A program made the translations under genes and the position numbers. A stretch of 55,711 bases of DNA, counting the filler, from Platydemus manokwari (Eukaryota): NCBI GenBank assembly GCA_037951405.1. It is 5 parts of 5 records of this genome, joined end to end, with 100 filler letters (N's around TTAATTAATTAA, not from the genome) between each part and the next. Parts side by side here need not be neighbours in the genome. Positions count along the whole stretch, not along the records: positions 31,489 to 46,456 come from JBBMOY011366982.1; 4 more parts are not named here. One strand, given 5' to 3'. The notes beneath the pieces are model-generated. The model ran no database searches. It had not been told where the DNA came from and saw only the letters and a list, made by a program, of their open reading frames with translations. Position 1 is the first letter of the stretch; every line of letters starts with the position of its first letter. Below, one piece after another: positions 31,489 through 36,947 of the stretch.

Positions 31489-33255
31489 TTGCATATTCAT
31501 ATCGCACATCTCATTATAATTCTGATTCAATTCCCTTTCCTCTCCTTGCAGAGACGCAATATTATGCCATTTACGCTTTAGTTCGTCCTTTCTGTTATCG
31601 AACTCTTTCATCTTCTTCTCCACGGCTCTGACCTTCTGTTTTATTTCGTCCATCTCGGCCTTTGCGTGGTTTTCCAACTCTGACTCTTCTTCTTCCTTCT
31701 CCATGGCTACCTCGTATTCGCATCTCCATCTCAACAGTTCCTCTAGGTCTTCTTCTTCGTTCCAGCTCTCGATATCAACGTCCAGCTCCAGATCCTCGCT
31801 GATATTTATCCCAAGATTCATATCTTTTGTTTGCTCACTAACAGTTGTTCTGTTCCGCTGGCACGTAGGCCTACTTCTTCTTCTGTTCGCTGTTTCTTTC
31901 TGGGACATTTTTCCACCGGGAAATGTTCTTCCCCAGGTGTTGTCGTATCATATGTTCGTACGACCTTTTCGCCACCATTGATTCCTTATCCTTAACCTCT
32001 TTGTCCAATGGAATCAATCTCCACGTTCGTTGTGGAGGTTCTCGTTCCTTTATTATCAATTTTGGTACTATGGGTGTTGGGTCTACTTATTCTAGCACCT
32101 CTTTTACCTTGGCTCTTTCTTCTCTTTCGTATTCCTTTACCTTTTCTTTCCAGCGCTTGTCTTAGCTGTCCTCCTCGTGGTCTTTCCACTCCCTTTTGAC
32201 AGCTTTGTGGATATCTTGGACCCATGCTAACGTATCCTGTAACTCTCTTTGTCTCATCCTTCTACCTATGATTCGATAGTATATATCCTGCAGCCTATAC
32301 GTGGTTGCGATTCTCTTCCTTCTTCTTATCTGATCCTCCTCCACTACTTTTTGATATATTACCGGTGCTCCATCTAAATCTCGGATGCCTAGCACCTCAT
32401 CCATTCTTATATCTAATGCCATCAACTTCTCCTTCAGTCGATGGCCGACCAGAATTTTCCCCTGCCAGATCTCCCTGAGTCTCACTTTGGCTCATTCTTA
32501 AATTCACCTGGTCTCTCACTTCATATTCCTCTAATCATCCCTTGTCTACATTATACTTCTTAATTTCTGCTAGTGGGCAGATCTTTTCTTTGAATAGAGT
32601 CCTTCCCTTGTAGTCCTCTATTCCCACTCATGTAGGGTGAAACTCCCGCAGGAAGTCTTCTGCTGTTTTTACATCAATAAAGACAATGGCTTCTCGTTTC
32701 TCTCTTATTGTCATTGCTTTTCTTAGAAAACTCAGGCTTCTGCCCAACGTCTGGAAAGGTAATTTTCTTTCGGTTAATATGGAGCTTATAAGTATCTCAT
32801 TTATCCACTTCTGTCCTTCAACCATTCTTTGTTCGATTACAAAAATGGCCGGGAGATCAGATACGCTGATTATAGCGCTTCTATTACTCCATAATGCAAA
32901 AATTCCTCTTCTTCGCTCGTGCCGCATTATCAATCTTATTTTTAGGGAAAATAGGGCTTCCACTTTGTGGTTGTCAGTCCCTATCTTAATTGTTATTCTT
33001 GAGATGTCTGCATGCACTTTTAATCGGTGGATTTCCATGGGGTTATGTTGTAATAGTTCCTCCAGCTGGAACCGTGTTTAAATTACTGAGTGTATTATGG
33101 TGAATACTCGGTTGCTTTTTGTTGAGGCATTAATTTTGTTTGGTACCCTTTCATATCTCCAAATGCCTATGTTATGGGTAGTTCCCTTGATTATAGTATA
33201 TCTCTGCAGAAGCGATTGGAATAGCTTGCTTGATGGGTTTGCTTTACGTTTATAG
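31489..33255 (-). pseudogene. Decayed long ORF with a REX4/ISG20-like DEDDh exonuclease-fold domain followed by charged coiled coil; probably element-derived
   Basis: Reading through stops and frameshifts: IVFIDVK..VGIEDYKGRTLFKEKICP..IKKYN..G..LREIWQGKILVGHRLKEKLMAL..IRDL..YRLQDIYYRIIG..QDTL, then an E/K-rich coil running into the gap. Visibly more GC-rich than the flanks. Confidence 0.6.
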
Positions 33256-33760
33256 CTAAAATATAATACATTAATTTTTATTGAAATATTAATTATGGGT
33301 GAAAGACAGTGATTGATGACAACGCTTACTCTGTTATTGTGATTGTTGATTCCCAGGAGAGATTCCTCCTTTATGGTGGTTGATTTTTATATTTTGATGA
33401 TTATACTTCGTTTTAGGCGCAGATTTGATGAGAGATGAAGGAAAAATTCAAGACTATGAGGTTAGTTTTAAAAATTAAATTTTATTGATTGTCTTTGTTG
33501 CAGCTTCGGAAACAATTTAAATTTTAGATCGAGTTTCTTTTCAACCAGAAAATGAAGATTCAAAACAATTACTGTTTTTAACAGGAATAACATTATTGAA
33601 TTTTCCCTTATTGTTTTTTGAATGCATAATAAGTTTTATTAACGACAAAAATTGCTTTTTTATCAACAAGAAATAATCAATAAAAATCAGTTTTGAAATT
33701 TTATTATTTATGCTGTGTTTCGATAAAAGTCAATCGCTTGCATCATCACTCGAGTAGATT

Positions 33761-35398
33761 TCATTTTTTATCTTTGGCAGAGCTGAAAAATTTAATAAAT
33801 ATTTGATTGTGTCTGCTTAGCTCTTTATTGGCGGATATTTCTGCAATTGTGATATAGAGAAAACCCAAATAAAATGGCTCGTTTTCATCACTTGTTGGCT
33901 TCTTTAATGCGCCATCTTTGGGCCATTGGGAACATTTTCTCGTCATTGTTTTGAAAGCGCGCCCAGTTTCCTGATTTATCAAGGCCAGCTCAACATCTCG
34001 ATCGAAAGGCCAAACGAGAATGTCGTCAAATGCGCCTCGCAAAATGCAGAAGTCGAAAAACAGAAAATCACCTGATTGAGAAATCCACAAACGAAGACGA
34101 ATTTTGTAACCTCTTGGGTGCGACAAAAATGCATCACTGCAAACAAAGAATCTTTCTGCGATTTTTTGTGTCCGGCTTACTTTATCAGCCCAATTATTGA
34201 GTTTCCAGACAAACTCACCCACTTTCAAACCGCTTTCTTGCAAATCGATAATTTTTTCTGATAACTGAGCTGTAATTATTTGATCATTTCCTATCGATCG
34301 AATCGTATTGATTGATTCAGTTTTTAGATCAGTACTGGCCTGTGATATCTCATCGATTTGTACCTGATAAACAGTAAGGACAATCAATCATGTTTTCTAC
34401 CAATCAAATTCACCTCGGTCTTTTCCAATCGAGCAGAAATTTTATCTCTTCTTGTTTCTGCCAACTGACATCGCTGTTTGAGTTCATTGATTTCTTTCTG
34501 CTGCTCTTTGATTTGAGATTTCAATTCATCCATTTCTCGAGTCTGATCATCGATTTTTGTATTGACAATGTGATTCTGAATACAAAAAACATCAACAGAT
34601 AAATCAATATTTAATGATTCATCTCACTTGCTGTGACTGTTCATCTTTTAGAGTCTGCATTTCAATCTTTATTGATCTATTTTCGATTTTAAGAGCGCAC
34701 ATTTCTTCATTTAATAATTCAATTTCTTTCCAATCTCGCTTTTCTTTATTCTGCAAATCTTGAATGTTTCTCTAAAATAATTTTCAATTAAAAATATAAT
34801 TTTACAAATATTGATTTTTTACTTCAGTTTCATCTTTATCGATTATAATTTGCTGTTTCAGATGATTATTTTCTATCTTCAGCGATTCGATTTCGTTTTC
34901 AACATTATTTATCCAATTAATCAATAATTTACTATGACACGAAATCTCTTGTAAAAGATGTTCATCCACTTTATTATTGGATAATTTATTTTCACAACAC
35001 CCCACTTTCAAATATGGGCAACTCTGTGGTTTGTTTTCGCAATTCATCAAATGATTTTCTAACATTTTCAACTCCATTTGAGAGTGACAATCAATATTTG
35101 GACATTTGGTTATTAATTTTGATATGCGAATATTGATTGCTCGATTTGGGATGATGTCTGTATTAATATCGATTAGTAATTCGTTACACAATTTAGATTT
35201 GCCTGGACATTTACTGTTGCCTCTCTCAGATTCCTTGAAACATTCACTGCAGAATCTACACCCACATGGTGCGATACATGCGTTAATCAAAATCTTATTG
35301 CAAATTCCACATTTTAAATCATTACTTATTTCTTCAACGAAATCTAACTCATATTCTCTCATAATGTTCCACATGTTGATAAATCTTTGTTGATCCAT
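33761..35398 (-). CDS. TRAF-family E3 ligase/adaptor (RING, TRAF zinc finger, coiled coil, MATH), ~494 aa, 4 exons
   Basis: Exons 35398-34823, 34771-34628, 34575-34414, 34363-33761 with phase-0 GT-AG introns of 51, 52 and 50 bp. RING CGIC..PCGCRFCSEC..CP; MATH GEFVWKL..GYKIRL..GAFDDILVWPF..LINQ. Confidence 0.92.
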
Positions 35399-36947
35399 TT
35401 TATCGACTTAATTATCTAAAATTGATCACAGAAATCATTTTCATATCAAAAAAATTCAAAAATAATTATCAAAATATATCACATAAAAATAACCACAAAA
35501 TATAAACAGATATTTTTCATATAATAATATTACTATTAAAATATAAATTATAAAAATAAAAAACAATTACATTTCTTTAAAGATTTGAAATACAAAATTT
35601 AAAATTGACAAGTAATAGCTCAGCTAAACAATTACAAATATCGATTGCGCTAATAATTTTTTTTAATTTAAGAATTCAGTAAATATAAACTAATTTGTTT
35701 GCTGTATGATTACAAAATCTGACCAAATATTTATCGAATTTTTTTATATTTATTGATTATTGTATAAATTAGATGTTTTACACCTTTAGAAAAAAAATGC
35801 AGATTTTTATTTAAAAGAAATTAACACTCGTTTTCTACGGCAGCAATTCAGATGCTTTGAATAATTATTATTATTGAAAAGAAAAAGATAATTTGTTAGA
35901 AATTTTGCAGCTGAAAAATAAATTAAGAATTTCACTGAAATTATGAATTCAGACAAAAATAATTCGATAAATAATTTTTTTGATTCCTCAATCATGTCTG
36001 AGGTTTTCTTTCCACGATTTCGCGGTTGTGAATTTTCATTATTTTGGTTATTTTTCGAATTTTGTCGATGACTGAATGAAGAGAATTTTTATTCACCTCG
36101 ATAGTTTTTCTATGGGTTTTCATTGATTAATTCGAATAATTAATTGGTTTTCTGTATCAAAATATGACAAATTATGAAAGACTGAAATTCTGAGTTAATT
36201 ATTGATTAGTTAATAATAAAAAAATTAATTTAATAAAATATTTTTATTTAAACTCATTTATTTACAAAAATAATTAAATTTCAAAACATAAATAATTTAA
36301 TTTACAAAAGATTTTTCAATAAACTTGATAAGAAATACAAGAAACCTTAGAAATCTTCATGACAACTCGCATGCTATCCTGGAAATATGTGTGATATATT
36401 GGAAAAGTAAAATAATTGTATCAGTAATTAGAAACAGTCAATTAAGCACCAATAGAAAACAAGAAAAAATGTATGAGTGATGTCATCTCACAAATCATAA
36501 AAGTATTCACCATTTGAAGTTCTTTTCAGGAAGAAATCACAGCTATTTATTAAAGAGGGAAAGCCATGTAAAAGGAAAATTATGGAAAGTTTCTTTAATT
36601 TTGATATGGAAAATTTTGAAGACCTTTATATATGCTGGATCGATAACCAAAAGCATTACAAAATTTACCACTTGAGGTCAATTTACCACTTTGAACAAAA
36701 TTCGCACTACCCTTAAATGATAATAACCCTCTATAAGAACACCAAATCAATTTATTCTTGTTGTCAGATGAAGACATCACCAATAACCAAATACCGCGGT
36801 GTCAAACAAGAATGCCCTCTTTCAGTAATAAAATAGATTGAAAACTAAAAATCATAAAATGGTAATCATTTTCATTAAAATAAAACTACGCATTTAAAAT
36901 TATTTATTATCGTATAACATATGTCCATGTCACGCATATAACGAAGA

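Follow-up and report, generated by a model that had tools for sequence, protein, structure and literature searches.

An ISG20/REXO4-type DEDDh protein, probably catalytically dead, encoded by the second gene of Burro-like retrotransposons in Platydemus manokwari

RESULTS

A decayed ORF2 copy in the window

The window (the whole stretch of Platydemus manokwari DNA that was analysed, 55 711 nt with filler) joins five parts of a fragmented assembly, 911 Mb in 1.99 million contigs. The opening of the fourth part, contig C1366982, carries a copy of a gene, ORF2, on the minus strand (31489–33253). Several minus-strand pieces join here, through homology to other copies, into a single reading of ∼590 codons; a sequence-only reading of the same DNA had estimated ∼580. 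Host DNA is AT-rich (28–31% GC), and the non-host composition claimed earlier is borne out by a GC content of 41.5% in this ORF2 copy versus 29.0% in the remainder of the stretch.

The copy is heavily damaged. It has five in-frame stops (at 33080, 32630, 32537, 32164 and 32089), four frameshifts (near 33200–33250, 32495–32500, 31930 and 31830–31845) and no start codon, and it is cut by the contig end; the start-equivalent codon at 33253 is ATA, while ATG is present in 18 of 22 copies. The element limits drawn in the sequence-only reading needed correction on both sides, although the joined reading stood. Position 31489 is the start of the contig, so the copy lacks ∼110 C-terminal codons as well as the LTR; homology to other copies extends to 33384 and ends there, hence the copy is cut at its 5′ side too. 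What lies in the window is a dead, 5′-truncated ORF2 copy, a fossil with no function of its own.

Read in the direction of the gene (all features on the minus strand), the copy begins with the 3′ part of an AT-rich spacer between ORF1 and ORF2 (33276–33384; blastn matches to other copies of 72–84%, reaching 33384). A splice-acceptor-like signal at 33256–33275 comprises a branch-like TTAAT, a T-rich tract and a YAG located 2 bases 5′ of the ORF2 start. The N-terminal domain (32816–33253; one frameshift, one stop and the lost start) is modelled, on copy L012, as a double-stranded beta-helix of cupin/AlkB-like type. It is followed by an ISG20/REXO4-type DEDDh pseudo-exonuclease domain, identified by profile and fold (32170–32702, with two stops and one frameshift), which had been placed at ∼32180–32690. 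A charged helix with a linker (31843–32169; two stops and two frameshifts) shares 73% identity with the open frames in L018 and L040, and an acidic tail with a predicted coiled coil (31489–31842), cut by the contig start, is 44–46% identical to the tails of L023 and L040. The GxILVGH and IRD motifs named in the earlier reading are present, as are its two unusual active-site positions: ExoI reads D-V-K (Asp at 32675, Lys at 32669) and the Asp position of ExoII is Lys (32428).

Just upstream of the copy, on the same strand, lies a TRAF-like gene (33764–35407, minus strand; RING, zf-TRAF, coil and MATH by Pfam). Copy L029 is likewise situated behind a TRAF-like gene (28–53% identical) in the same orientation. 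TRAF-like genes are numerous in the host; these neighbours are either due to chance in a TRAF-rich genome or tied to the MATH cargo of Burro elements. Further along the contig (45300–46100, plus strand) we found an LTR-like unit that belongs to this group of elements, begins TGTTGGGATAGCAC at the junction with host DNA and is 68% like the unit behind ORF2 in L029. Being on the strand opposite to the window ORF2, it is probably a separate insertion.

Copies of ORF2 and the carrier element

ORF2 is multi-copy. The copy-number check proposed in the sequence-only reading, a DNA search of the source assembly, gave 48 matches with 67–89% identity on 39 of the 40 contigs scored, out of 73 candidates; both numbers are lower bounds and the family occupies at least 39 contigs. 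Summed read depth from one run was 410–1320 over ORF2 versus 12–33 at mid-flank, which fits many copies and yields no copy number. The full ORF2, from start to stop, has 695–705 codons (four copies); the longest open stretches reach 450–465 residues, and none of the copies examined is open throughout. The longest element fragments in the assembly are ∼10–14 kb, with no whole element on a single contig for this ORF2 family. The idea that a 2.3-kb unit could be a solo LTR or a small stand-alone element was ruled out, as copies continue into integrase. Several short contigs (L082, L084, L090, L091 and L099) have bacterial-looking DnaQ/oligoribonuclease genes, some with 54–64% GC; they probably stem from a symbiont or a contaminant.

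The layout of the carrier was derived from other copies: a fusion-glycoprotein env, protease (PR), reverse transcriptase (RT), RNase H (RH), integrase (IN), a membrane extension, ORF2 and an LTR-like unit. Pfam matches upstream of ORF2 come in the order Monjiviricetes_fusion, protease, RT, RNase H and integrase. L027, L030, L061, L062 and L064 each have integrase upstream of ORF2, on one contig and strand, and the fusion family PF24664 precedes the protease on L062 and L063, both of which carry window-type ORF2. The PR-RT-RH-IN order of Ty3/gypsy pol was observed by Pfam on frames of L061, L062 and L065/L070, and it is complete in the metagenome contigs L146 and L149, where env and pol share a single frame; the window-family copies are broken. 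The earlier proposal of an accessory gene of an unusual large retroelement or endogenous virus thus gains direct backing from the integrase linkage and from env on ORF2-carrying contigs. Its suggestion that the flanks be extended in search of gag-pol and LTRs was productive as well: pol, env, one CCHC knuckle and the LTR-like unit were located. The knuckle was read by eye in L081 and has no Pfam match, and the 5′ halves of elements lie mostly beyond contig ends.

At the end of ORF1, integrase runs in frame into several hundred further residues (L064:771-3077, L031:237-1214, L146 and L149) that comprise hydrophobic segments, a predicted ectodomain and, at the C terminus, an anchor. This extension matched no Pfam family; judged by these features, it is possibly a second surface protein, in addition to the fusion protein. 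In L146 and L149, ORF1 has two or three protease-like repeats before RT, and in L149 a membrane-protein block is situated between the repeats.

This layout has been described before. Burro elements of planarians have a mononegavirus-like fusion env before the protease within a long ORF1 (PMC6431247, section 7), an internal region of up to 25 kb, a Gag with CCHC knuckles, a BCL2-like motif before env and cargo of MATH, BIR, ankyrin and SUMO-like type. The sequence-only reading saw here its best candidate for an undescribed system; for the carrier this was an overstatement, since the layout matches the Burro retrotransposons in PMC6431247. In a sister family of our elements, a Bcl-2 match precedes env at E 0.0011 in L136 (below the cut-off) and at 0.022 in L135; none was found in L062, L146 or L149. 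MATH, BIR and ankyrin cargo was not found in the element fragments scanned. It is almost certain that ORF2 is the second gene of a Burro-like, env-bearing Ty3/gypsy LTR retrotransposon; membership in Burro proper is likely.

The heptamer TGTTGGG directly follows the ORF2 stop codon in 11 distinct copies. In five further loci (L161, L164, L168, L172 and the L174/L175 type), the unit that opens with it begins at unrelated host flanks, and in L029 it is present on both sides. The unit is at least 940 bases long. Its 3′ end, a target-site duplication and a PBS were not found, and no polypurine tract was seen before it at the ORF2 stop of L002, L023, L062 and L131. The ORF2 stop abuts TG directly in two families whose proteins are ∼30% identical. 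From this arrangement we read the unit as an LTR. In L022 the ORF2 and the LTR-like unit are followed, on the same strand, by Gag-like and ubiquitin-like frames, an order that indicates either tandem elements with a common LTR or a nested insertion. The unit also has a short match to the DNA before gag in L081, which was dropped as low-complexity and in the wrong orientation.

The ORF2 protein

No Pfam domain was detected in the window pieces or in single copies. ISG20L2 was matched at E 1.2e-4 from one natural copy and at 6.8e-7 from 15 copies, and the homology of ORF2 to ISG20L2/ISG20 is beyond chance. A profile whose alignment contains cellular members reached E 4e-57.

The fold was modelled for the natural copy L012 with an alignment of 82 relatives including 13 cellular REXO4/ISG20 sequences (pLDDT 89, pTM 0.86); a model from only 15 close copies had pLDDT 30. 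ORF2 residues 202–374 superpose on ISG20 (1wlj) with Z 16.7 and rmsd 2.4 over 156 aligned residues, followed in the ranking by PAN2 (Z 13.4) and SDN1 (Z 12.8), though this match may be partly built in by the 13 cellular sequences in the alignment. A Foldseek search with the nuclease domain gave E 3.2e-8 to 7yw5, and an Atlas search gave RNase_T clusters at 0.94. The profile and structure check against DEDDh enzymes that had been called for produced an ISG20/REXO4-type match in both sequence and fold.

Residues 8–160 form a double-stranded beta-helix in the L012 model. It matches ALKBH6 at Z 9.5 (rmsd 3.1, 133 aligned), prolyl hydroxylases at Z 8.7–8.8 and small cupins at Z 8.3–8.4; the barrel was modelled as part of the larger ORF2, and these Z values are near the level reached by common arrangements. 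As modelled, the N-terminal domain is a cupin/AlkB-like barrel, of either family. The sequence-only reading had called this region unknown, missing the domain. Dioxygenases of the AlkB/2OG-Fe(II) type have an HxD..H iron triad and a 2OG-binding Arg; the triad is absent from the barrel in the 55 aligned rows of the sequence alignment, where only one His is conserved (48/55). For the barrel, no AlkB or cupin sequence match was found in Pfam (82 members), and hhalign against two host AlkB-like pieces gave a probability <1%; an Atlas search with the domain yielded no usable match.

The charged coil of the earlier reading corresponds in the window copy to an acidic tail with a predicted coiled coil, having 36 D/E and 17 K/R in 118 residues. 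The ORF2 tail gave only weak coil-type Pfam matches and is probably coiled.

Loss of the active site and purifying selection

ISG20L2 requires the residues D, E, D, H and D, and any single change of the five abolishes its activity (PMC10899777). In the window family, the ExoI Asp is kept in 11/11 copies and the Glu is replaced by Lys or Arg in the same 11; the ExoII Asp is Lys in all 10 copies covered, with Asn instead in L010, a copy beyond the 11 scored. In 8/8 copies the catalytic His is absent and Thr or Ile occupies the position of the last Asp. An Asp stands one residue before that position in 8/8 copies, which leaves the ExoIII alignment uncertain; the family retains one, at most two, of the five catalytic residues. 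Inspection of other copies, as the sequence-only reading had advised, gave the family state D, K/R, K, none, T/I. Since the changes are found across the family, the loss of catalytic residues is a family trait and not decay of the window copy.

We estimated dN/dS for the 36 pairs of nine copies. Values were 0.05–0.18 across the dead nuclease domain in 31 pairs (five pairs were saturated) and 0.08–0.30 across the barrel in 36 of 36; the pairs are non-independent and dS is near saturation, and the signal is uniform. Because of the low ratio across the dead domain, the dead enzyme very probably had a function. We conclude that the ORF2 nuclease is very probably catalytically dead yet functional, as judged from substitution patterns. 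The pseudo-nuclease of REXO4/ISG20 type that had been proposed as one option accords with the ISG20 fold match (Z 16.7) and the family-wide loss of the catalytic set.

A signal before the ORF2 start

A YAG is located within 3 nt of the ORF2 start in 21 of 22 copies, and a branch-like motif is present in 20 of 22; the 22 copies are kin and do not make 21 independent cases. As a control, 446 other ATGs in the stretch were scored, and 33 of them have a YAG nearby. Among 10 distant ORF2s, YAG precedes the start in five, two of which belong to the same family; of the five without it, three have starts that are uncertain. We infer from this pattern that ORF2 may be expressed from a spliced or trans-spliced subgenomic RNA.

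Relatives with live and dead active sites

A sister family in the same genome (L085–L093) has the intact set D-E-E-H-D, with Glu at ExoII, and is situated downstream of integrase or RT (L108, L110, L123, L124, L144 and L145). Three further families of this genome are dead, with other residue changes. The D-K-K state is common to a second genome family (L127, L131 and L134), which has the identical junction of stop codon and LTR-like unit, and to the outside proteins P0001, P0002 and P0008. The metagenome contigs L146 and L149 represent elements with env in the polyprotein, an open ORF1 and, behind it, an ORF2 with an intact site.

A HMMER scan of 1.84 billion representatives gave 100 matches. 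We aligned 71 of them (the remainder being short pieces or further cellular-type matches): 13 are cellular-type, with intact sites in 13/13, and 58 are ORF2-like. Among the latter, 35 are intact, 16 are altered at fully covered sites and seven are partly covered, of which three are intact and four altered where seen; many show the DEDD-to-DEED change. None of the 19 non-fish representatives looked up had an informative name. A word-index protein search gave no relatives, and only two with the alignment; the viral contigs scanned had no ORF2 relative.

A nuclease-domain tree was computed from 82 rows and 186 columns. In it, the cellular REXO4/ISG20 sequences form one clade (support 100/98) that joins the element rows beside intact D-E-D-H-D groups (99/97). 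The D-K-K proteins form one clade (96/95). A second dead group of 19 rows, in which nearly all five residues were lost in varied ways, has weak support and long branches. On the simplest reading of these sequences, the nuclease would have been captured a single time, and its active site lost afterwards at least once, perhaps twice.

The host has a REXO4-like gene of its own (L185), with an intron, an intact site and 41–43% identity to cellular REXO4/ISG20L2; compared with the ORF2 family protein, it gave no aligned nuclease match. Two outcomes had been set against the sequence-only reading in advance, the lack of any DEDDh match and a single-copy retrocopy or contaminant. What we found is a multi-copy sequence, a matched fold and a separate host gene.

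DISCUSSION

Possible roles of ORF2

We lean towards the view that the Burro-like ORF2, with its barrel, dead ISG20/REXO4 fold and acidic tail, is an RNA-binding protector of element RNA. Selection without catalysis points to binding. An ancestral element would have acquired an REXO4/ISG20-type RNase in a single capture and joined it to a cupin-like domain; ORF2 would be made from a spliced subgenomic RNA, as is retroviral env, and its intact versions would trim RNA 3′ ends. In the D-K-K lineage two metal-binding acids turned into Lys or Arg, and the pocket may grip an RNA end with no metal present and leave it uncut; this grip is suggested because the basic residues at the two metal-acid positions persist over saturated synonymous distance. 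Dead ORF2 could then protect the RNA of the element against small-RNA silencing or the 3′ exonucleases of the host, or compete with those enzymes. By analogy, RNA shielding or counter-defence as the role of ORF2 has a little under an even chance. The full scheme, in which a live and a dead barrel-RNase protein are made from env-style spliced RNA and the dead form caps RNA 3′ ends against exonucleases or piRNA trimming, is more speculative and, taken as a whole, rather unlikely.

Exuperantia and Egalitarian are inactive DEDD proteins that bind RNA. They resemble ORF2 in a fold kept without catalysis, and their structures (5l80 and 9rvy) match it at Z 9.2 and 8.7; inactive binders of this kind are host proteins of other DEDD branches, whereas ORF2 is element-borne and of REXO4 stock. 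Maelstrom and EXD1 are likewise inactive DEDD proteins that bind RNA (cited in PMC5408684).

Two other functions deserve consideration, each improbable and the second slightly more so. ORF2 could be a helper of reverse transcription, its intact forms removing RNA from RNA:DNA hybrids alongside RNase H and its dead forms clamping the plus-strand primer or RNA end in the particle: human REXO4 was reported to degrade R-loop RNA with RNase H1 (PMC12915616), and D-K-K ORF2s end flush with the LTR-like unit, where a polypurine tract was not seen. ORF2, however, lies outside the Gag-Pol polyprotein and has its own acceptor-like site, and the RT and RNase H domains of the element are complete. Alternatively, both folds could be scaffolds for protein contacts, such as a decoy for REXO4 partners or a means of host manipulation, and hold no RNA. 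The barrel is also without a metal site, the 19-row group lost its five residues variously, and the BIR, BCL2 and MATH cargo of Burro acts on host proteins (PMC6431247, section 7), all of which would suit scaffolds; the retention of Asp, Lys/Arg and Lys across saturated dS and in outside proteins fits a kept ligand site better.

Retained nuclease activity of the family, with Lys/Arg replacing a metal ion and with a shifted Asp, is very unlikely. The constancy of the ExoI Asp (11/11) and of the Asp one place before the ExoIII position (8/8) speaks for it, but of the five essential residues three or four have been replaced, the general-base His among them, and each single change kills ISG20L2 (PMC10899777). 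We give almost no credence to the view that ORF2 belongs to the host, as a gene or as a REXO4 retrocopy, or that it is a contaminant. The sequence has no introns, is separated by 370 bases from a TRAF-like gene and comes from an assembly with some bacterial-looking nuclease contigs; against this, dozens of copies are linked to gypsy pol, cellular proteins have their own clade (100/98) and host L185 contains an intron and keeps its active site intact. The integrase linkage on five contigs refutes it.

Planarian genomes contain Burro elements in very large numbers, and PIWI represses them (PMC8532177); for one Burro element, a contribution to the survival of stem cells was reported (cited in PMC13465017). 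An ISG20-like protein coded by an element, live and dead in one genome, is a candidate counter-silencer for persistence in PIWI-rich stem cells. If RNA protection by ORF2 is true, it would be a counter-defence of retroelements that mirrors the antiviral role of ISG20. The ORF2 families also present a natural series from enzyme to pseudoenzyme under selection.

Comparison with known systems

The Burro layout and the presence of DEDD nuclease ORFs in LTR retrotransposons are known; the DEDDh ORF2 with a barrel is probably new. We found no account of a DEDDh ORF in Burro in the literature covered, and primary Burro descriptions beyond it may annotate one. The elements resemble Burro/GYPSM1 of dugesiid planarians in the fusion env before the protease in ORF1, the PR-RT-RH-IN order and the decayed fragments with stops and frameshifts; a sister family has a weak BCL2 match before env. 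They differ in the exonuclease, the cupin-like domain and the post-integrase membrane extension, which are absent from the list in section 7 of PMC6431247.

ISG20, ISG20L2 and REXO4 are the top sequence and fold matches and share with ORF2 the GH and RD motifs and, in the sister families, the five-residue site. Unlike them, ORF2 is mobile and intronless, has an extra N-terminal barrel and an acidic tail, and keeps one or two catalytic residues.

A parallel in architecture is provided by the LTR retrotransposons Juno and Vesta and the Terminons of bdelloid rotifers, whose ORF3 encodes a DEDDy exonuclease (PMC5408684). In both cases a 3′–5′ nuclease of the DEDD class is a separate ORF behind pol, and the DEDD-to-DEED change occurs. 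As described there, rotifer ORF3 is RNase D-like and of DEDDy type; its residues are intact, a coil is lacking and its evolution does not clearly depart from neutrality. The Platydemus ORF2, in contrast, is of the DEDDh REXO4/ISG20 type, is fused to a predicted barrel, belongs to an env-bearing element and has dead lineages under strong purifying selection.
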